From Flavobacteriales bacterium (GTDB taxonomy: Bacteria > Bacteroidota > Bacteroidia > Palsa-965), in contig JBEIPA010000001.1 in the NCBI GenBank assembly GCA_040377305.1, forward strand, positions 203,324 through 267,323: 64,000 nt of DNA. Direction: 5' to 3'. A program made the position numbers and the translations under genes. Under the pieces are notes generated by a model. It did not search any database and was not told the origin of the DNA. It worked only from the letters and a program-made list of their open reading frames with translations. Positions 41,901 to 51,018 of the stretch are shown in pieces (the stretch's first letter is position 1; each line of letters opens with the position of its first letter).

Positions 41901-41983
41901 ACAAACGTAAACGACAAGTAAAACACGCAACTTAACGCCATCAGGATGGCGAAAATTCGAATAGCTCCTTTAATGTTTTGCAT
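38909..41983 (-). CDS. secDF: Protein translocase subunit SecDF
   Basis: LGLDLQGGM, RINEFGVAQP, VDANILIFERIREE, GVDFSGGR, DTVVVFDRIRE; start MQNIKGAI; TATATTTG at 42049-42056. Confidence 0.97.
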   Translation of the reverse strand: MQNIKGAIRIFAILMALSCVFYLSFTFVTRSWEKKADTYAKAYVERQEVKDSIDAMANGDVNRAGEIRAAIMTERRHFFLYDSIAGKKVYLGMYTYESCKEKELSLGLDLQGGMNVTMEVSTPDIIRALANYSEAQDFKEAERRAIAAQSTSNEDYITLFLRAYKEVNPTAKLASLFAAQLKSDNITFNSTDEQVEAALRKQADDAVERAKLVIETRINEFGVAQPNVQHLKSTNRIIVELPGVKDEERVSQILVSSANLEFWETYDAFEVNGAINAANEALKEILGYKVDTVHVDSTLYQAKYDGLKTKSDTMRADSIAKVRLDSAVVKLDSIKATDTTGLANERNPIGQYVVSGNPDPDQKGPITIGVKTKDTAAVMKMLRMPEVVDMLPSDLNLVWTAKPEFTDDGKPFVFLLALKESNKGGPVLEGDVVTDARKTFNQMSGSASPEISMTMNAEGSRDWARITKDNVGKSIAIVLDKKVYSFPNVNQEITGGQSQITGNFTNAEADDLVKLLNTGKLPATCYIVEKTVVGAELGDDAVKAGLLSFIVALIVVLIYMAFYYSKAGIVADIALFVNVFFILGILSSLGAVLTLPGIAGVVLTIALSVDANILIFERIREELREGKNLANAIADGYKHAMSSILDSNLTTLILGIILYAFGTGPVQGFATTLIIGIISSMFCAIFITRLIFDWMLKKDQAIAFSTKATENVLRNKNFKFVEKRKMFYAISGVIILLGAIMAFKHGGFSLGVDFSGGRTYTVRFDEKVDRELVRTELEKSLTIAPIVKTAGDENQLKITTNYRAADVDTSADTDVRAKLDAGLNAAAGNTPYKIVSSIKVGPSVANEVIAKSFLVVGVSCVLMFLYILFRFRKWQFGLGAVAALVHDVLIVFSFYAIFDGILPFPLELDQHFVAAILTVMGYSMTDTVVVFDRIREFLGTQTKDSIADNTSTINYALNSTLSRTINTSMITFFVLLAIFIFGGDTIRGFSFALLIGIVIGTYSSLCIATPIVMDFDRKNTATKS

Positions 41984-42154
41984 AGTATTTTGAAGTATCT
42001 CCACACGGAATTCTGTCCAATCGACAGTACCTTCCAAAATGGAGGCTGCAAATATATAAGAAAAACCTTAACGGGCAATCGCCGTATAATGACCTTAAAG
42101 GCCCTGATTTTAAGGTATATTTGTCTCCCGGCAAAGGTTCCAAAACAGACATTT

Positions 42155-44377
42155 ATGTCCTTCAGAATAACCACACTTTTAGGCGCCCTGAGCCTCATCA
42201 TTTTAGTGGTTCCTACCCGTGCGCAAGTGGCTATGGGATTTGTCCGTTACGACTCCATTCCGGTTTCCGACGGAACTCAACTTTTAACAATGGCATGGGG
42301 TGGTGGAATGGACATGCTCCAGTATTCTGAAATCGATTTGGACCAGGATGGCACCAAGGACCTGTTCGTTTTTGACCGATCCGGCGACAAAATCACAACA
42401 TACATTAATACAGGTACACCGAATCAGGTATCGTACGTATTAGCGCCTCAATACATTTATAGCTTCCCGCTTCTTCACGATTGGGCATTGATGCGCGATT
42501 ACAACTGCGATGGCAAGGAAGATATTTTTACTGCAACAGTAGCTGGGATCAGGGTGTACGAAAACATTTCGACCATTCCGAACGGAATTCAGTTTCAGGT
42601 GGTTGACTCTTTGATACACACGGATCGCTCTCCGAATAGCAGCCATTGGATGGGCAACCTATATGTGAGCTTTATTGATTTACCCGCTATTCGTGATGTT
42701 GATGGAGACGGCGATCTTGACATTCTTACTTTCCAGAACGGCGGACCGCAAATCGAATACCATGTTAATATGAGCATGGAGCGTTACGGAACCTGCGACA
42801 GCATTCAATATGAAGTGCGTTCGAATTGCTGGGGAAAAATCACTGAGAACGGACAGAGTGCTGCGATCACGTTGAATTTCGGTTGTCTTCCGGTTCCGAT
42901 GGTGCCCCCCCACAACGAAACAGATCGTGTCATGCATTCCGGATCTTGCCTCGAGTGTTTCAATTTCGATGGCGATACTGTGCAGGATGTACTAATTGGA
43001 GATGTTGGAAGTGCGAACATTGCATACATCCACAATTCAACCTGGCCCGATTCGGCAATCATAGACTTTGTGGATCCGTTGTATCCTTCCGCTAATGTTC
43101 CTGTTAACCTCGATCTGTTTCCTTGTCCGGCACACATTGACGTAAACAACGATGGTAAACGCGATATGCTTTTCTCAGGGGCAGCACCAACGTATTCAGA
43201 AAACAAAAGAAGTTCGCTCTATTATATGAATACCGGATCGAATAGTGCCGTGCAATCGACATTCGTGCAGGATGATTTTCTTCAGGAGAACATGATTGAC
43301 GTGGGTGAAGGTTGTTATCCTGTACTATTTGATTACGATTCGGACGGCGACAAAGATCTTCTGATCGGGAATCGTGGTTACCATGTTGTTGCTGGACCTA
43401 TGGAATCGAAGATCGCGTTGTACAGAAATATAGGCACTCCAACCACTCCCCACTTTATTTATACTACGGATGATTTCGCCGGCGTACACGCGAACAATCC
43501 TTCTTTAGCGAACCTCGTTCCTACCTTCGGAGATTTGGATGGTGATACTGATCTGGACATGCTCATTGGCGACTACAACGGTGAGCTGCACTATTTTCAG
43601 AAAGGTCCCGGAGCTGGAAACTATTCTTTGGCCGCTTCTTCGTATCAGGGAATTGATGTGGGCGATTTTGCTGCACCGCAATTGTACGATGTAGATGGTG
43701 ACAATAAACTCGATTTGCTGATTGGTGAAGACAACGGAATGATTCGCTACTATCGAAATACAGGGACTGTTGCAGCACCGGTTTTCACTTTGGTTACCGC
43801 GGCGTTCGGTGGAATAAATATCAGTCAGCCGGGCTGGCCGGGAATGAGTGTTCCGTTTATGTTTGATGATAATGGCAGCAGTGCACTTGTCGTTGGTTCG
43901 CAACGCGGAAGGGTGTATCGTTACGACAACATCGATGGAAATCTGAGTGGGACATTTACACTTACCGATTCCCTTTACATAAGCTGGAGAGAAGGCGGAA
44001 ATCTTGCGGTGGCAATCGATGATCTTAATGGAGATGGATTGTATGATGCGATCATTGGCAACTACGCTGGTGGGGTTTCATTTTTCATGGGGGACAGCAA
44101 CGTATCTACTTCCAGCATTGGCGGAACATCGCCTGGACAGATTTTCGTTTATCCAAATCCCGCGAATGAATTCCTGTCATTCAAAACAGATTTCATTCCA
44201 GACGACAACACGGTTTACGAATTGCATAATGCCGCAGGAAGCTTATCACGCAAAGGTCATATTTATCATCAGCAAACAACAATTCAGTGCGGTGATCTGA
44301 GTGCCGGCATTTATATTTTGTCGGTTACAACACCGAAAGGAATTCTTCACCGTAAAGTGGTGATCGCACATCAGTAA
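42155..44377 (+). CDS. FG-GAP/VCBS repeat protein with T9SS type A sorting domain
   Basis: Signal peptide, repeated DxDGDGDxD loops, C-terminal VYPNPA...LSAGIYIL...KVVI. Confidence 0.9.
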   Translation: MSFRITTLLGALSLIILVVPTRAQVAMGFVRYDSIPVSDGTQLLTMAWGGGMDMLQYSEIDLDQDGTKDLFVFDRSGDKITTYINTGTPNQVSYVLAPQYIYSFPLLHDWALMRDYNCDGKEDIFTATVAGIRVYENISTIPNGIQFQVVDSLIHTDRSPNSSHWMGNLYVSFIDLPAIRDVDGDGDLDILTFQNGGPQIEYHVNMSMERYGTCDSIQYEVRSNCWGKITENGQSAAITLNFGCLPVPMVPPHNETDRVMHSGSCLECFNFDGDTVQDVLIGDVGSANIAYIHNSTWPDSAIIDFVDPLYPSANVPVNLDLFPCPAHIDVNNDGKRDMLFSGAAPTYSENKRSSLYYMNTGSNSAVQSTFVQDDFLQENMIDVGEGCYPVLFDYDSDGDKDLLIGNRGYHVVAGPMESKIALYRNIGTPTTPHFIYTTDDFAGVHANNPSLANLVPTFGDLDGDTDLDMLIGDYNGELHYFQKGPGAGNYSLAASSYQGIDVGDFAAPQLYDVDGDNKLDLLIGEDNGMIRYYRNTGTVAAPVFTLVTAAFGGINISQPGWPGMSVPFMFDDNGSSALVVGSQRGRVYRYDNIDGNLSGTFTLTDSLYISWREGGNLAVAIDDLNGDGLYDAIIGNYAGGVSFFMGDSNVSTSSIGGTSPGQIFVYPNPANEFLSFKTDFIPDDNTVYELHNAAGSLSRKGHIYHQQTTIQCGDLSAGIYILSVTTPKGILHRKVVIAHQ

Positions 44378-44393
44378 TCATTGATAATATCAA

Positions 44394-46634
44394 ATGGGCA
44401 AAAAGATTTTAGCATTCGCATTCGTTCTGACTTCTTTGTGTGGATCCGCACAAAGTAATTTGCAGTTTCTTCGTAACGATACAGTTCCTGTCATTAGCAA
44501 CAGTGACACGCTCGTGAATCCCTGGGCGGGCGGACTGAATTTCTGTCAGCATTCTGAAATCGACCTTAATCTCGATGGCATAGATGATCTTTTCATTTTC
44601 GACCGAAGTGGAAATCGTGTTTCGACTTACATCAACAACGGAACCCCGGGTCAGGTTGACTATCACGTGGCGCCGCAGTATGTAAGTGCATTTCCAGCGA
44701 TGGAAGGTTGGGCAATTCTCCGCGACTACAATTGCGATGGAATGATGGACATTTTCACGTATGGCAACGGGATGTTTGGGGGAATAGACTTGTATGAGAA
44801 CGTTTCCTCCATCCAGAATGGATTACAGTTTCAGTTAGTGCTTCACTTACTCCAAACAAACACCACTCCAAACTCAACTAATGTGTATGCCGACATTCAC
44901 ATTACGAAGTTTGATATTCCTGCGGTTCGCGACATTGACCACGATGGTGATTTAGATATTCTCACATTCGACGTTGGTGGAACAACAGTTGAGTGGTATC
45001 GCAATCTCAGTATGGAATCTTACGGTGTTTGCGATTCCCTTACCTATCGTTTAGAAACGCGTTGCTGGGGATTGTTCACAGAAGACAATTCTACTTCAAC
45101 CATCAATCTGAACCAATCTTGTCCTTCGGTTCCGATTGCCCAACCTCCTTCAAGTATGGAAAGAGAACGGCACGCGGGCTCTTGTCTCGAATGCATCAAT
45201 ACAGACGGCGACAACGACGAAGATTTACTGATTGGTGATTTAACAAATCCACGCATTGTCTACACGCAAAACGGAGGCACGCAAGCGTCTGCGAACATGG
45301 TTTATCAGGACGCGAGTTTTCCGTCGTATGATACATCTGTATTCATGAACCTGTTCGTGTGCGGACACCATCTTGATGTGAATAATGATGGACTTAAGGA
45401 TGTAGTGATATCACCGAACGTTTCTCAAACAGTAGAGAACTTCAATTCGAACTGGTTGTTTTTAAATGTCGGTGCGAATGACTCAGTCGTTCTCGAGTTT
45501 CAGGAACGCAACTTCATGCAGGGCGGAATGATTGATTGCGGAGAAGGATCAGTGCCTCGTTGGTTCGATTACGATAGTGACGGTGATCTCGATTTATTCA
45601 TTGGTAATTACGGATACTATCGTCCATCCGGAATTTACCCGTCGAAAATTGCTCTGTATAAGAATACGGGAAACTTCAATGACCCGCAATTCACTTTTAT
45701 CACTGACGACTTCGCGAATATCCACACGAACAACCTGAGCATCATTTCACCGATTCCAACATTTGGAGATTTGGATGGTGATGGCGATAAGGATATGTTA
45801 GTTGGTGATATTCTCGGCCATCTCTTCATGTTCAGAAAAGATCCGGGTCCGGCAGACAATTTTGTTTTGGTTCCCGGATTTTATCAATCGATCGATGTTG
45901 GTAGTAATGCAGCTCCGCAACTCATAGACGTTGATCGTGATAACAAGATTGATTTGCTGATTGGTGAACAATCGGGAAACATCAACTACTACCTCAACAC
46001 GGGCACCAACCTTGCACCAGTATTCTCACTTGCGTCAACTTCATTCGGGGGGGTGAGTGTCAATGCACCAGCATCAATCTCCGGATTTAGCGTTCCTTGC
46101 TTATGGGATAATAATGGAACGTATCAGTTACTTGTGGGTTCAGAGCGCGGATTCATTTATCGCTACGATAACATTGATGGTAACCTCGCCGGAAATTTTA
46201 CACTTACTGATTCGATGTACATCACTACCCACGAAGGTTTACGCGTTGCTCCATGGGCAGGTTACCTGAATGGTGATACTTTGATCGATGCGGTCATCGG
46301 AAATTACGCAGGTGGAGTAGTCTTGTATTATGGTGATATCACCAGCGATATACACTCAATCACGCAAACTCTAACACCAACCCTCGGTGTATTTCCAAAT
46401 CCATCGAACACCGAATTTTACATTTCCGGTTGGAACACAGCGGCTCGTTTTCCGGCAACACTGGAAATTGTTGGGATGAACGGACAAGTAGTGAAGTCAG
46501 TACTTGTTACAAATCGAGATCAATCTATTAGTGTAGCTGAATTGTCGGCGGGCTGCTATTTCGGAAAGGTTACCGATGCGGAAGGCGTTACTTCTACGCT
46601 CCGCTTTGTCGTCGCGAAAAGTGATGAACGGTAG
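44394..46634 (+). CDS. FG-GAP/VCBS repeat protein with T9SS type A sorting domain (tandem paralog)
   Basis: Collinear with the upstream gene (RDYNCDG, GSCLEC, FDYDSDGD, YRYDNIDGNL); VFPNPS...LSAGCYF CTD. Confidence 0.9.
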   Translation: MGKKILAFAFVLTSLCGSAQSNLQFLRNDTVPVISNSDTLVNPWAGGLNFCQHSEIDLNLDGIDDLFIFDRSGNRVSTYINNGTPGQVDYHVAPQYVSAFPAMEGWAILRDYNCDGMMDIFTYGNGMFGGIDLYENVSSIQNGLQFQLVLHLLQTNTTPNSTNVYADIHITKFDIPAVRDIDHDGDLDILTFDVGGTTVEWYRNLSMESYGVCDSLTYRLETRCWGLFTEDNSTSTINLNQSCPSVPIAQPPSSMERERHAGSCLECINTDGDNDEDLLIGDLTNPRIVYTQNGGTQASANMVYQDASFPSYDTSVFMNLFVCGHHLDVNNDGLKDVVISPNVSQTVENFNSNWLFLNVGANDSVVLEFQERNFMQGGMIDCGEGSVPRWFDYDSDGDLDLFIGNYGYYRPSGIYPSKIALYKNTGNFNDPQFTFITDDFANIHTNNLSIISPIPTFGDLDGDGDKDMLVGDILGHLFMFRKDPGPADNFVLVPGFYQSIDVGSNAAPQLIDVDRDNKIDLLIGEQSGNINYYLNTGTNLAPVFSLASTSFGGVSVNAPASISGFSVPCLWDNNGTYQLLVGSERGFIYRYDNIDGNLAGNFTLTDSMYITTHEGLRVAPWAGYLNGDTLIDAVIGNYAGGVVLYYGDITSDIHSITQTLTPTLGVFPNPSNTEFYISGWNTAARFPATLEIVGMNGQVVKSVLVTNRDQSISVAELSAGCYFGKVTDAEGVTSTLRFVVAKSDER

Positions 46635-46655
46635 TTTGCGGAATTCAACATTGTG

Positions 46656-46663
46656 TACTTTTG
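46656..46663 (+). promoter_or_regulatory. -7 promoter element (TACTTTTG) for the uORF/TonB receptor unit
   Basis: Exact TAnnTTTG 7 nt before ATG 46671. Confidence 0.6.
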
Positions 46664-46670
46664 TTGTGAA

Positions 46671-46994
46671 ATGAAGAAAGGATGTACATATTTCGTCTCC
46701 ATGGTGGTGCTGGTAGTGTTTTCACTCTATCTGGTTCCGCATGAAGCTGTACACGTTTTTTATGATCACCACGACACAGAACATGGTGTTGCACATGGAA
46801 CCGAAACAACTTTTTCTTCTATTCACATCCACTGCGATTTCCTTTCAACAGATTTAACCGACTTTCTTCCGGCTGCTGAATCCGCTCCTGTTGAATGCTC
46901 GATAGTGATTCCCTTTCACTACAAAACCATCGACGTACAAACCGTTCGTTGCGTTTCTGTTCTGCGTGATTCCCGCGGACCACCTCTTGCTTAA
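46671..46994 (+). CDS. His-rich upstream ORF with N-terminal hydrophobic segment and C-terminal RGPP (DUF2946/CruR-like leader)
   Basis: 107 aa; hydrophobic residues about 7-22; 8 His in residues 24-54, then CDF; ends RDSRGPPLA*. Confidence 0.8.
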   Translation: MKKGCTYFVSMVVLVVFSLYLVPHEAVHVFYDHHDTEHGVAHGTETTFSSIHIHCDFLSTDLTDFLPAAESAPVECSIVIPFHYKTIDVQTVRCVSVLRDSRGPPLA

Positions 46995-47053
46995 TAAAGT
47001 CTGACATCCTTCTAGTCTGCCGCGAACCTTCGTGGCGAAACAACTTTATTAAG
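46990..47053 (+). promoter_or_regulatory. RNA stem linking the uORF stop codon to the receptor initiation region
   Basis: CTTAATAAAGT (46990-47000) is the exact reverse complement of ACTTTATTAAG (47043-47053); inner hairpin GCCGCGA/TCGTGGC at 47019-47036. Confidence 0.65.
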
Positions 47054-47060
47054 AAAAATC

Positions 47061-49502
47061 ATGAACAAAATACTACTACTGGTAGTGCTCAGCGCTATAC
47101 ATATCATTCCTATTGATGCACAAAATGCAATTCAGGGAAAGATTACCGATAAAGAAGATGGTACGCCGATTTATGGTGCGAGCATCTATATATCTGAATT
47201 GCATGCCGGAGCTTCGACCGATACGAATGGCAGATTTTCTATTGCGAACGTACCGCTGGGAACCTTCCTTGCGGAAATCCGCATGATTGGATACGCAACA
47301 GTTGCCGTGCAGGTTCAGGGGCAACCCATCAACGGAGCATATCTTTCCGAGCAACAAATTCAACTTACAAAAACGCCAGCCGAATATGCCCCGGTGATCA
47401 TCACGGGAACTTCCGGCACCATTGAGCGAATGCGAAATCCTGTACCTAATACACTGCAAACCCGCGATCACTTTTTGAAACATGGCGCAACCAATGCAGT
47501 GAATGCGCTGAGTGAACTCCCGGGAATTTCCGTTGTGAGCACGGGTAACGCAATTTCAAAACCAGTGATCCGTGGACTAGGATATAATCGCGTTGTGGTA
47601 CTACGAAACGGAATTCGTCAGGAAGGACAACAGTGGGGCGACGAACATGGAATTGAAATTGATGAATTTGAAATTGATCGGGTTGAAATCATAAAAGGTC
47701 CTGGCAGCATCATTTACGGTTCAGATGCTATGGCTGGTGTAATCAACTTCATTACTCCGCGAAATGTTCAGGAAGGAATGATTACGGGTGAGTACACCGG
47801 AACGTTTCAGTCGAATGGAATGTTAATTGGAAATTCCCTGATGACCGCTGGAAACATAAAAGGTGTGAGCTGGCAGGTTCGCGGAAGCCAGAAGATGGCT
47901 GGCAATTATTTCACACCTGCAGATGGTTATGTGGCCAATTCCGGATTCAAGGAATACAATGCCAGTGGATTTGTCGGAATCAATCGCAGTTGGGGCGTTT
48001 CCAAAATCAGCTTCAGCACGTTTAACCAGCAGGTCGGTTTGCCTGAAGGAGAAAGAGATTCATTGGGAAACTTTATGGTGCCTTATGCAGTGAATGATAC
48101 GACCGAAGACATGCAATCGTTCACAAGTGATGAGTTGAAAAACTATTCGCATCATCTCGAAACTCCGCAGCAACGCATCAATCATAACCGACTGGTATTC
48201 TCAAATAGTTTGTACTTCAATGATGTGTCGGTAAAAATTGATTTGGGTTATCAGTCAAATCTTCGTCGTGAATTCGGAAACGTACTGGACCCGGATGAAA
48301 CGGAAGTTGCAATGAAGCTCGAAACAACAAACCTGAATGCTGCGATATATTCTCCGGAGAAGAATGGAAAACAAATCATTGGAGGGATATGTTTGCAAAG
48401 ACAAAGCAATGCAAATTCAGGAGAGGAATACATTGTTCCGGATTACATCGCGCAGGATGCAGGAGCGTTCATCCATTTCAAGTATGTGACGCCCAAATGG
48501 TATTTCGGGACAGGATTGCGCGGCGATGTTCGACAACTTTCAACGCAGGCTTTGTATATCGATAGCCTTGGAAATTTCATACACGAAACAACGGAAAACG
48601 TAAAGTTCAATGCACTTAACAAAACGTTTTCATCATTCTCAGCAATTGCAGGTACATCTTATCAACCCGCAACTCCGGTTGTTTTTCGTGTGAACCTCTC
48701 ACGTGGTTTCCGTAATCCGAATATTGCAGAACTTTCTTCAAACGGACGGCACGAAGGAACTTTCCGTTATGAATCCGGGAATTCAAATCTGAAATCGGAA
48801 ACAAGCCTGCAGCTCGATCTCGGAATGACATACACGTCTGATCACTTCAATGTGGAGCTCAGTACCTTCGTGAACGACATTCAGAATTTCATTTATCTAA
48901 GCAAGATAAATTCGGTGTTCGGCGGAGACAGCATCCTTGATCCCAATGATCCTGCACCCGTGTTCACATTCTCACAAGGTCATGCGCGTTTGTACGGTGG
49001 AGAAATTTTCACTGACATTCACCCTCACCCACTCGACTGGCTCCATTTTGAAAACTCTGTGTCGTTTGTAATCGGAGAGCTCCTTGCGCAACCTGACTCT
49101 ATGAACTGTTTGCCATTTATTCCCCCCTTGAAATACCAATCGGAAGTTAATGCTCACATCGAAAAACAATTTGGGCCATTCACTGAAACCTACTTCAGTG
49201 CGTCCATTTCTGTTTATATGAAGCAAGACAGAATCTACTCTGCATACGGAACGGAAACCGCAACTCCGGGGTATTCACTCGTGGAATTTGGCGCAGGAAC
49301 ACAGCTCGTGAATGCGAAAGGAACCACGCTGTGCAAAATCTATTTCTCAGCAAACAATTTGTTAAACGAGAAATACCAGTCGCATTTGAGTCGTTTGAAA
49401 TACGCACCGGTAAATCCCGCAACCGGCAACGGTGGTATCTATGGTCAAGGTCGCAGCTTCTGTGTGCGGATGCTGATTCCATTTAGCATTTGGCAGCATT
49501 AA
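47061..49502 (+). CDS. TonB-dependent receptor, probably for a metal
   Basis: Signal peptide, carboxypeptidase-regulatory-like N domain, plug KPVIRGLG...QEGQQWGDEHG...VEIIKGPGSIIYGSDAMAGVIN, NNLLNEKYQSHLSRLK C-terminus. Confidence 0.95.
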   Translation: MNKILLLVVLSAIHIIPIDAQNAIQGKITDKEDGTPIYGASIYISELHAGASTDTNGRFSIANVPLGTFLAEIRMIGYATVAVQVQGQPINGAYLSEQQIQLTKTPAEYAPVIITGTSGTIERMRNPVPNTLQTRDHFLKHGATNAVNALSELPGISVVSTGNAISKPVIRGLGYNRVVVLRNGIRQEGQQWGDEHGIEIDEFEIDRVEIIKGPGSIIYGSDAMAGVINFITPRNVQEGMITGEYTGTFQSNGMLIGNSLMTAGNIKGVSWQVRGSQKMAGNYFTPADGYVANSGFKEYNASGFVGINRSWGVSKISFSTFNQQVGLPEGERDSLGNFMVPYAVNDTTEDMQSFTSDELKNYSHHLETPQQRINHNRLVFSNSLYFNDVSVKIDLGYQSNLRREFGNVLDPDETEVAMKLETTNLNAAIYSPEKNGKQIIGGICLQRQSNANSGEEYIVPDYIAQDAGAFIHFKYVTPKWYFGTGLRGDVRQLSTQALYIDSLGNFIHETTENVKFNALNKTFSSFSAIAGTSYQPATPVVFRVNLSRGFRNPNIAELSSNGRHEGTFRYESGNSNLKSETSLQLDLGMTYTSDHFNVELSTFVNDIQNFIYLSKINSVFGGDSILDPNDPAPVFTFSQGHARLYGGEIFTDIHPHPLDWLHFENSVSFVIGELLAQPDSMNCLPFIPPLKYQSEVNAHIEKQFGPFTETYFSASISVYMKQDRIYSAYGTETATPGYSLVEFGAGTQLVNAKGTTLCKIYFSANNLLNEKYQSHLSRLKYAPVNPATGNGGIYGQGRSFCVRMLIPFSIWQH

Positions 49503-49521: not shown

Positions 49522-51018
49522 GTGAAATCGCGTATTGCATATTTTGTTGTTGCATTAGTTGCACTTGCATCTGTTTATTCAGGATGCAAAAAAGATGCGC
49601 CTTCCATTGACTTAGAAGGTTCTCAGTATCCGGATGAAATCGGACAAATCATTCTCGGCAATTGCGCCACCAGCGGATGTCATAACGACGCCAGTTCACA
49701 CGTAGCTGCCGGCCTTAACCTTTCTTCCTGGGAAAAATGTATGCAGGGCGATCGCAACGGGGCTGTTGTGATTCCGTATTCGCATGAGTTCAGTACGATG
49801 TTCATGTATTGCAACACGTATCCTGATCTCGGACTGACAGCGGAACCGACAATGCCCTTCAACGACGATCCACTTACACGTGCCCAGGTAATAACACTTC
49901 GTAACTGGATCAATGCGGGTGCACCTTCGCGTACGGGAGAAATTCCGTTCTCCGGAAATGCATCGCGCAAAAAAATCTACGTTACGAATCAGGGCTGTGA
50001 CGTAGTTACGGTGATCGATGCTGCGACTGGAATTCCCATGCGTTACATTTCCGTTGGAAGTTCATCAAGTATTGAATTGCCACATGGCTTGCGCTTGTCT
50101 CCCGATGGTGAATACTGGTACGTGTGTTTTGCGAATGGAAGTTACCTGGAGAAATACAGAACTTCCGATGATGCGTTTGTGGGAAGAATTCTTCTGGGCG
50201 CAAACACATCTGCAGCATTCGGAAGCTGGAACACATTCACCATTACTTCTGATTCGCGCAATGCATACGTGGTACACTGGGATCCAAATGGAGCCGGAAG
50301 AATTGTACGCGTTGATCTGGAAACGATGCAGTACACACATATCATAGCGAGTTCCATCTTCAACCAGACTCATGGATCGGCAGTTTCTGCCGATGGAAAC
50401 ACGTTGTACGTAACGACCACGCGGGGAAATTTTATTTACAAAGTCGATCTAAGTAATCTGTCGCAAATTACCGCTGACCAAATTATTATTGACGGTGTAA
50501 GTCCGACTCCGCAACCCGGCAACTCTGAAAACGGACATGAAATTGCAATCGCTCCCGATGGTACAAAATATTTCATAACCTGTGAAGGCACAAATAATGT
50601 CCGTGTCTTTGATATCGCAACAGATGCGTTGATTGCAACAATTCCGGTTGGTGTGAGACCCTTAGAAATTGTTCTTTCAAACACGACGCCTTACGGATAT
50701 GTAACGTGTTCTGACGATACACTCACATTTCCCGGCAAACGCGGCTCCGTGCATTGCTTCAACTGGCAATCGAACACTGCTGTTGGTTCAGTGTATCCCG
50801 GGCATCAGCCACATGGAATAACGTTGGACGAAGATCAGCAGCAAGTGATCATCGCTAACCGCAATATATCCAACGACGGACCCACCCCGCATCACGTGGG
50901 CACCTGCGCTGGAAGAAACGGAAGTGTTGCTTTCATCGATATGTTTTCACTTGCCGTTCTCGATGACAAAGACCTCGAAGTAAGTGTTGATCCTTATGCT
51001 TGCCTCTATCGCCCATGA
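49522..51018 (+). CDS. Lipoprotein with cytochrome c-like N domain (CX4CH) and YncE/YVTN beta-propeller
   Basis: YSGC lipobox; CATSGCH...MP...LRNWINAGA; YVTNQG..VTVID, PHG and VG..P blades; GTG start. Confidence 0.85.
   Translation: MKSRIAYFVVALVALASVYSGCKKDAPSIDLEGSQYPDEIGQIILGNCATSGCHNDASSHVAAGLNLSSWEKCMQGDRNGAVVIPYSHEFSTMFMYCNTYPDLGLTAEPTMPFNDDPLTRAQVITLRNWINAGAPSRTGEIPFSGNASRKKIYVTNQGCDVVTVIDAATGIPMRYISVGSSSSIELPHGLRLSPDGEYWYVCFANGSYLEKYRTSDDAFVGRILLGANTSAAFGSWNTFTITSDSRNAYVVHWDPNGAGRIVRVDLETMQYTHIIASSIFNQTHGSAVSADGNTLYVTTTRGNFIYKVDLSNLSQITADQIIIDGVSPTPQPGNSENGHEIAIAPDGTKYFITCEGTNNVRVFDIATDALIATIPVGVRPLEIVLSNTTPYGYVTCSDDTLTFPGKRGSVHCFNWQSNTAVGSVYPGHQPHGITLDEDQQQVIIANRNISNDGPTPHHVGTCAGRNGSVAFIDMFSLAVLDDKDLEVSVDPYACLYRP

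Follow-up and report, generated by a model that had tools for sequence, protein, structure and literature searches.

A conserved R[AG]PP leader and a locus-specific stem ahead of a ZnuD-like TonB-dependent receptor in Bacteroidota: a candidate zinc-responsive arrest switch

Two small exported proteins, CruR and CutF, are the closest described relatives of the element analyzed here. CruR of Bordetella pertussis (Bp2923, DUF2946/PF11162) provides metal-off control of a TonB-dependent transporter (PMC9426467), and its arrest was shown by toeprinting with the first Pro in the P site (PMC12992588). CutF of Rhodobacter capsulatus precedes cutO, which has a masking stem, and 5,334 CutF-like proteins have been sorted into 29 clusters (PMC9973294; bioRxiv 10.1101/2025.02.05.636593); they carry Cys, His or mixed motifs, many come from Bacteroidota, and they often stand before TonB genes (PMC9973294). 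RGPP leaders before TonB receptors have been called universal in Gram-negative bacteria (PMC12992588), RQH-family peptides of Bacteroidota origin were arrested in vitro (PMC10987492), and according to Roy et al. no riboswitch has been described for copper or zinc (PMC9426467). We analyzed a 64,000-nt stretch of Flavobacteriales contig JBEIPA010000001.1 (assembly GCA_040377305.1; hereafter the window), in which a small open reading frame (ORF) ending in RGPP, the leader, precedes the gene of a ZnuD-like TonB-dependent receptor. An earlier note, made by a model from the letters alone, had proposed that this leader arrests ribosomes, that the arrest opens a stem masking the receptor start, and that metal turns uptake off. 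The core of this proposal passed comparative tests, but what it said of ribosome coverage, the His site and newness had to be corrected. The element is real and of the CruR/CutF kind; what makes it valuable is the comparative evidence for the stem together with the case for zinc.

As in CruR, a small upstream ORF with a (here putative) export signal and a Cys motif about 45 residues ahead of a C-terminal RxPP stands before the gene of a TonB-dependent metal transporter, which metal is predicted to turn off. The spacing is 45 residues in CruR and 46 in the window leader. In contrast to CruR, the window leader has HxHC and a His close to the transmembrane (TM) segment instead of CxxC, it has no DUF2946 match above the cut-off, the gap is 66 nt with a masking stem instead of 162 nt with Rho termination, and the receptor is ZnuD-like rather than CrtA-type, in a Bacteroidota host. 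The predicted layout of an exported nascent sensor, the 45-residue spacing and a stem-loop over the initiation site of the next gene is shared with CutF. The published filters for CutF-like proteins are a length below 150 aa, PP within the last 15 residues and a same-strand downstream gene within 1,000 nt (PMC9973294); the window leader, with 107 aa, PP at 104-105 and the 66-nt gap, falls inside them, and for the export signal of that set it shows a hydrophobic helix at residues 2-21 (AlphaFold2, hydropathy). However, CutF is copper-on, serves a detoxifying oxidase and hides a Shine-Dalgarno sequence, whereas metal-off control of an importer and an A-rich start without Shine-Dalgarno are predicted here. 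The leaders surveyed in PMC12992588 likewise precede TonB receptors and encode small secretory or membrane proteins with RGPP near the C-terminus; in the sections consulted, that survey gives no metal assignment, stem analysis or family definition for its Bacteroidota members. A RAPP-like stall that opens a stem over the downstream start is also known from SecM and the RQH-family arrest peptides, but these monitor Sec/YidC and precede secA or secDF, and in the passages on them no conserved metal site is described (PMC10987492). A stem that lies over the downstream start and overlaps the stalled ribosome, as in RAPP/RGPP arrest systems, is predicted here with an overlap of 3-5 bp. ZnuD itself is under Zur, whereas the receptor of the window lies behind a leader. 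The claim of newness stood in part. Architecture, 45-residue spacing argument and masking stem have all been described in print for CutF, and metal-off control of a TonB transporter for CruR; the zinc case was unpublished as far as our searches went. These searches returned no zinc-responsive arrest leader, Bacteroidota stem or operator-leader alternation, and the survey lists may include the family.

Re-reading of the sequence confirmed every feature that the earlier note had listed for the leader, the gap and the stem (Table 1). The leader has His at positions 24, 28, 33, 34, 38, 42, 52 and 54, plus 83, and the HxHC motif continues with Asp-Phe after Cys55 (HIHCDF). Between C55 and R102 lie 46 residues, and RGPP is followed by Leu-Ala-stop. 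The most hydrophobic 19-residue window was residues 4-22 (mean 2.17). The AlphaFold2 model had a helix at 2-21, a kink at P23, a helix at 24-30 and then low-confidence coil, and a folded metal site was absent from it (predicted template modelling score 0.30). Three small ORFs of the source genome end in R[AG]PP, and only this leader has a long ORF starting within the next 250 nt.

Conservation of the leader was examined at several depths. All 23 close homologs, one of which is the window's own protein, keep H24, H28, H33, H38, H52, H54, C55 and RGPP. Across 45 HxHC leaders the conserved positions were P23, H28, H33, D35, T36, H52, H54 and C55; H52, H54 and C55 were invariant, H28, H33 and D35 were at least 90% conserved, and these six were the only candidate ligands that survived at this depth. 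The eight His of the reported cluster are present in residues 24-54, but only H28, H33, H52 and H54 among them are conserved. A profile of the 45 leaders found 1,116 clusters at 50% identity. Among the 150 best family representatives, 147 ended in RGPP or RAPP and 149 had HxHC; the Cys-to-Arg spacer was 46 in 124 of these 149, whereas the interval between first His and Cys ranged from 25 to 35. The family conserves a TM-His/His...HxHC pattern, a 46-residue spacer and R[AG]PP. No Pfam match was found for the window leader, and no Pfam or NCBIfam model reached its cut-off for the leader family; DUF2946 gave weak matches in 3 of 61 homologous leaders (15.5-17.7 bits, cut-off 23.7), and DUF2946-named Bacteroidota clusters lay near the leader in the ESM Atlas at 0.95-0.97, which serves as a lead only. 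By profile, the leaders are a real, large Bacteroidota family without a curated model and outside DUF2946. A single leader match was present in 30 of 101 genomes of the same class and, besides the source genome, in 27 of 34 genomes of the same family.

Two leader types were distinguished among 83 leaders (duplicates included), 53 with HxHC and 27 with CxxC. In both, the Cys (HxHC) or the first Cys (CxxC) lies 46-47 residues ahead of the Arg, and a His is retained at the end of the TM helix; the equivalents of H28 and C55 were invariant in an alignment of 30 leaders (26 CxxC and 4 HxHC). Receptors of one and the same family follow both types, and on the receptor tree the two are intermixed. Because these positions and the receptor family are shared, the minimal leader site would be His, His, Cys plus Cys or His, which we take to be a tetrahedral zinc-type site. 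For the same reason the change from Cys to His is not evidence for a different metal, and the suggestion that a His cluster in place of CxxC marks a distinct metal was rejected.

The linkage of leader and receptor was determined in 80 receptor loci, the best of at least 592 confirmed matches in GTDB genomes, which were picked by the receptor alone with the leader disregarded (two of them, L059 and L060, are identical in sequence). A canonical R[AG]PP leader preceded 53 receptors and a variant leader 8, so that 61 of the 80 loci had a leader of either kind; 18 were leaderless and 1 was not judgeable. An earlier, stricter pass had counted 51 canonical leaders. The variant leaders end in KGPP or KAPP (L021, L031, L035, L042, L044, L046) or in RGSP (L037, L053), and all have CxxC at the same spacing; these endings may be arrest motifs beyond the tested RAPP-like set, or weakened ones.

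The leader stop and the receptor ATG (47061) are 66 nt apart. Both the minimum-free-energy and the centroid fold (z -4.18) contained the perfect 11-bp stem and its inner hairpin, none of 200 shuffles folded equally well, and an 11-bp match between the two 25-nt arm regions arose in 1 of 20,000 shuffles. Rfam gave no match at E up to 1 over 46400-47300. Starts in the source genome showed an A peak at -13 to -10, and Shine-Dalgarno-like words were found at 0.8% of 641 starts; the 3' arm therefore probably covers the region that matters for initiation, in agreement with the earlier suggestion that an A-rich, non-Shine-Dalgarno start is masked.

The stem was also analyzed across canonical-leader loci whose gaps measure 30-200 nt; the non-redundant set comprised 78 of them, 46 selected by receptor and 32 by leader. 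Excluded were duplicates, loci with gaps above 200 nt (L010, L012), those whose leader is truncated (L029, L068) and those lacking a called start (L014, L015, L065, L077, L099), and the starts of L002, L032, L039, L090 and L095 were set by hand. A stem was scored where at least 5 pairs were expected between the region just after RxPP and -30 to +2 of the receptor. The data showed a predicted stem in 41 of the 78 loci (19/46 receptor-selected and 22/32 leader-selected; 28/50 HxHC and 13/25 CxxC), or in 40 of 77 without row L094 from genome G012, on which no conclusion hinges. Rates in the controls were 15% (624 arm swaps), 9% (390 arm shuffles) and 16% (400 same-strand gene pairs of the source genome). 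Duplexes of a locus's own arms had a mean of -8.6 kcal/mol in comparison with -4.6 kcal/mol for swapped arms, a difference matched in 0 of 20,000 permutations, and the own arm was the best in its row in only 15 of 78 loci. Kin are not independent, hence these statistics are not formal p-values. Arm-swap, shuffle and duplex-permutation tests replaced column covariation because gap lengths differ and MAFFT could not align the 3' arms. The arms vary together across loci, stop codon (TAA or TGA) and pairing partner included, and their positions stay constant relative to the P-site codon (+9 to +19) and the ATG (-20 to -7). Several pair types occurred at each position of the 5' arm, in a table that was fitted to each locus's own fold and is illustrative. 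In homologs the stem is predicted in the form of complementary arms specific to each locus.

We compared the receptor with solved transporters. Its best solved relative was ZnuD, with E 1.7e-23 for the single sequence and 1.9e-40 versus 1.5e-27 for the next hit in profile comparison. ZnuD of Neisseria meningitidis (PDB 4RDR) binds metal through Asp99, His100, Glu340 and His499 (PMC4557270). Receptor E195/H196 and H564 aligned with ZnuD D99/H100 and H499, on a 14-residue numbering offset of the PDB chain deduced from the His-His distance, and were invariant in 63 receptors, the WGDEHG segment having partly served as search word. No Cys or internal Met was found among the invariant or nearly invariant receptor columns. 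Identity to ZnuD was about 19%, the receptor has an extra N-terminal CarboxypepD_reg domain, and the NCBIfam ZnuD model NF038289 gave 118.6 bits against a cut-off of 950. Among 51 downstream neighbours scanned, no PCuAC, SCO or HupE was found, while DUF4625 occurred in 2 and CDF-family zinc-transporter domains in 5. Zinc was chosen as the metal because of the receptor's kinship with ZnuD and because of the operator described next, not because of the leader motif. A Pseudomonas aeruginosa DUF2946 gene was also considered; PMC9431628 does not mark it as Zur-regulated, and it adds nothing to the zinc case.

Of the 18 leaderless loci, 12 had the palindrome TGCAAC-n3-GTTGCA at the receptor's promoter or start; of the 61 leader loci only 6 had it nearby, all six Chitinophaga-type. 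Calls allowed at most one mismatch in the core, and the background was 9 in 210,840 nt. On a quick tree of 63 receptors, box-only receptors required at least 4 changes. The exact box was found in 24 of 61 genomes of the family that holds the Chitinophaga-type loci, with 0 for the reversed control. Of 24 box loci examined, 15 precede a MerC-domain gene, 3 a Fur-family gene and 4 an oxidoreductase gene; one of the 3 Fur-family genes is divergent from a ZigA-like GTPase (542 bits, cut-off 600). A strong match to the Fur paralog of that ZigA locus turned up in 9 of 12 leaderless genomes and in none of the 6 variant-leader genomes, many of the surveyed genomes being incomplete metagenome-assembled genomes. 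The source genome has one Fur-family gene and no match to the box-associated Fur paralog, ZigA or MerC; with the queries used, homologs of ZnuA, ZigA and MerC were not found there and a ZIP gene was. One Fur match was found in 23 of 29 relatives tested, the source genome included. From the sites and their neighbours we infer that TGCAAC-n3-GTTGCA is a Zur-like box, a candidate Zur-type operator. Literature searches found no published Bacteroidota Zur box and no description of this palindrome; a term search showed that "Zur" is missing from the main text of PMC3878776, and the Zur-related passages of PMC2770081 cover other phyla. The 2.2-Mb genome G141 contained 14 exact palindrome copies in comparison with 0-3 in the other 60 genomes, and these copies are possibly a repeat element rather than a regulon.

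Transcription of the leader was examined by promoter motif. The TTTG plus TAnnTTTG element is presumably a Bacteroidota housekeeping-type promoter. Fifty-three of 80 leader loci had TAnnTTTG within the expected 180-nt window at the start of the leader, in comparison with 58 of 951 windows of coding sequence. In 29 of these 53 loci the motif ended 3-8 nt ahead of an in-frame start, many of these starts being GTG or TTG, and this proximity suggests that the leader mRNAs are leaderless or nearly so. The gap itself contained no TAnnTTTG in any of the 80 leader loci, window included, as had been stated for the 66-nt gap.

Sequence comparison establishes a leader family with a fixed Cys-to-Arg distance, a stem specific to each locus, ZnuD-type residues in the receptor and an either/or relation with the operator. 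The leader gene, its RGPP ending and the complementary arms around the receptor start are conserved in Bacteroidota; together they likely make up a translational switch. The best reading, to which we give slightly better than an even chance, is a zinc-off arrest switch in place of a Zur-like repressor; arrest, metal binding, topology, direction and metal identity are what we infer for it. When zinc is scarce, a ribosome would stall at RGPP, by analogy with CruR with Pro104 in the P site, the stem is predicted to loosen, and the ZnuD-like receptor would be translated. The TM helix would enter Sec, and H28/H33 and HxHC, 46 residues from the arrest site, would meet near the periplasmic mouth of the channel. 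When this His3Cys site (His2Cys2 in CxxC members) binds metal, the pull of folding would end the arrest; termination two codons on would free the 5' arm, which would re-pair over -18 to -8 and close the receptor start. The metal would be zinc, and the leader would take the role that a Zur-like repressor has in other lineages. The wider proposal, that many Bacteroidota have swapped a Zur-like repressor for a nascent-chain zinc sensor with a His3Cys/His2Cys2 site at the Sec exit and a stem over a start without Shine-Dalgarno, seems to us evenly poised between right and wrong.

Several results weigh against the zinc-off arrest switch. The earlier claim that a stalled ribosome covers the 5' arm held in that an overlap exists, but a ribosome with the first Pro in its P site would reach just the outer 3-5 of the 11 pairs. 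The remaining pairs had a predicted probability of 0.7-0.9 with a footprint reaching +13, about 0.6 at +14 and about 0.2 at +15. In the 41 stem loci, a median of 4.2 bp remains at the +13 footprint, which abolishes the stem (<3 bp) in 14 only; the +15 footprint does so in 24. The cost of opening -18 to +2 drops from 7.3 to 3.2 or 1.3 kcal/mol. By the pairing threshold used, 37 of the 78 loci have no stem, including all Hymenobacter and several Chitinophaga, and the controls reach 9-16%. In CruR the export signal is dispensable and control is by Rho (PMC9426467), and RxPP by itself is insufficient for arrest, upstream context being needed (PMC12992588). On the receptor side, the fourth ZnuD ligand, E340, has an invariant E404 in its region that HMMER aligned off register, Foldseek places the copper receptor OprC almost level with ZnuD (3.3e-39 versus 4.6e-40), and NCBIfam heme-receptor models outrank ZnuD, all far under cut-off. 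On the operator side, the link of the box to ZigA comes from 1 of 24 loci and a score just under the cut-off, several boxes adjoin Fur-like or oxidoreductase genes, many of the MerC genes are divergent from an SCO gene, and 13 of 32 canonical-leader genomes also carry the Fur paralog.

The near-equal rank of OprC bears on an alternative in which arrest and stem are unchanged but copper, the metal of CruR and CutF, or Ni/Co is sensed. Copper is what the two tested relatives respond to, CxxC at CruR-like spacing occurs in 27 of 83 leaders, and His-only CutF-like clusters adjoin HupE/UreJ genes (PMC9973294). However, the Asp/Glu-His and His of ZnuD type are invariant in the receptors and no Cys or Met is, the 51 neighbours offer DUF4625 and CDF zinc transporters instead of PCuAC, SCO or HupE, and the alternative operator also lies ahead of a ZigA-like gene; we consider another metal unlikely. 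It is less probable still that Rho-dependent termination after arrest release is the main control, as in CruR, with the stem secondary, for example as a pause site. Rho is encoded in the source genome, the 120 nt ahead of RxPP have a C>G skew of 0.20-0.23 versus -0.06 in receptor genes, and the 37 loci without a stem would fit. However, the skew vanishes at synonymous positions (0.04 versus 0.08), so that a selected rut-like Rho-loading site was not supported, and the 3' arm keeps its place at -20 to -7 of the ATG in gaps that range from 41 to 175 nt, which suits the masking of initiation.

The position of the leader stop codon inside the 5' arm means that a terminating ribosome covers more of the stem than a stalled one. 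This fits plain coupling, in which every terminating ribosome opens the stem, arrest is not regulated and the peptide has another metal-handling role; a basal coupling effect has been reported for another arrest peptide (PMC10987492). Yet RGPP is among the most avoided bacterial tetrapeptides (PMC12992588), R[AG]PP is kept in 147 of 150 representatives and the 46-residue distance to the Cys is fixed, and we regard plain coupling as quite improbable. The export signal, arrest motif and masking stem together are also the layout of SecM and CutF, so the leader could monitor export, or metal could prolong the stall and turn the receptor on. What lies downstream is the gene of an importer rather than one for export or detoxification, and in 12 of the 18 leaderless loci the leader's place is taken by a repressor-type operator that overlaps the promoter or start; we regard either of these as very improbable.

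If the wider proposal is correct, the leader would be a zinc-sensing arrest peptide and a post-transcriptional zinc sensor in a phylum for which the literature searched describes none, and a DNA operator and an arrest leader would have been swapped repeatedly on one transporter family. Metal-responsive switches of such design are known for copper, and zinc would be the new part; in the literature searched metal-sensing arrest peptides were tested for copper only, and the leader family offers a direct zinc test case. The locus shows how a stem opened by arrest could act where initiation proceeds without Shine-Dalgarno pairing, and the fixed 46-residue spacing with two ligand sets makes a good model for arrest ended by the pull of metal binding. 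Leaders are present in cultured, non-pathogenic strains of Chitinophaga, Pedobacter, Adhaeribacter and Hymenobacter, some with the leader only and some with leader and operator.

Table 1. Features of the leader-receptor locus (window positions) and related sites in other loci
Feature	Position	Strand	Evidence
Promoter: TTTG (46635-46638) and TACTTTTG (46656-46663), ending 7 nt ahead of the leader ATG	46635..46663	+	
Leader ORF, 107 aa: TM helix, His/His...HxHC site, 46-aa spacer, RGPP	46671..46994	+	
Hydrophobic segment, residues 4-22, predicted membrane anchor or export signal	46680..46736	+	hydropathy, AlphaFold2
Codons of conserved putative metal ligands H28, H33 (D35), H52, H54, C55	46752..46835	+	alignments
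RGPP arrest-type motif, two codons ahead of the stop	46974..46985	+	conservation in homologs
5' arm of masking stem, with leader stop codon; +11 to +21 from predicted P-site codon	46990..47000	+	
Inner GC-rich hairpin joining the arms; sequence not conserved	47018..47037	+	
3' arm of masking stem, -18 to -8 of receptor ATG, over A-rich initiation region	47043..47053	+	
ZnuD-like TonB-dependent receptor, 813 aa	47061..49502	+	
Cytochrome-c-like and beta-propeller protein, 19 nt 3' of receptor	49522..51018	+	
Palindrome at receptor promoters	L004, L013, L017, L023-L025, L048, L055, L063, L064, L066, L076		
Palindrome loci with other genes	L129-L152		
Second small ORFs	L022:6395-6769, L027:6499-6879, L030:6499-6873, L045:6466-6831		

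The genes around the element were also inspected. The protein encoded directly 3' of the receptor has an atypical CxxxxCH cytochrome-c-like segment, and similar genes follow the receptor in L001, L112, L113, L114 and L116; the gene is possibly co-transcribed with the receptor and its product a partner of it. A second small ORF of about 125 aa, with a hydrophobic N-terminus and no Pfam match, was seen 3' of the receptor and ahead of Cys-rich secreted proteins in four loci (Table 1), possibly another leader type. On the 5' side, 41978-46634 holds two tandem genes with FG-GAP-like repeats, the second with a type IX secretion system sorting domain (Pfam); they end 36 nt before the leader, and the leader promoter overlaps that short gap. 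Among the other loci, L075 contains a His/CxxC frame that resembles a leader but lacks the PP ending, and the leader match of L099 is interrupted by an in-frame TAA; both are possibly broken leaders. The contigs of L059 and L044, titled Citrobacter and Bifidobacterium, hold Bacteroidota-type loci, that of L059 matching Chryseobacterium L060, and are probably mis-binned.

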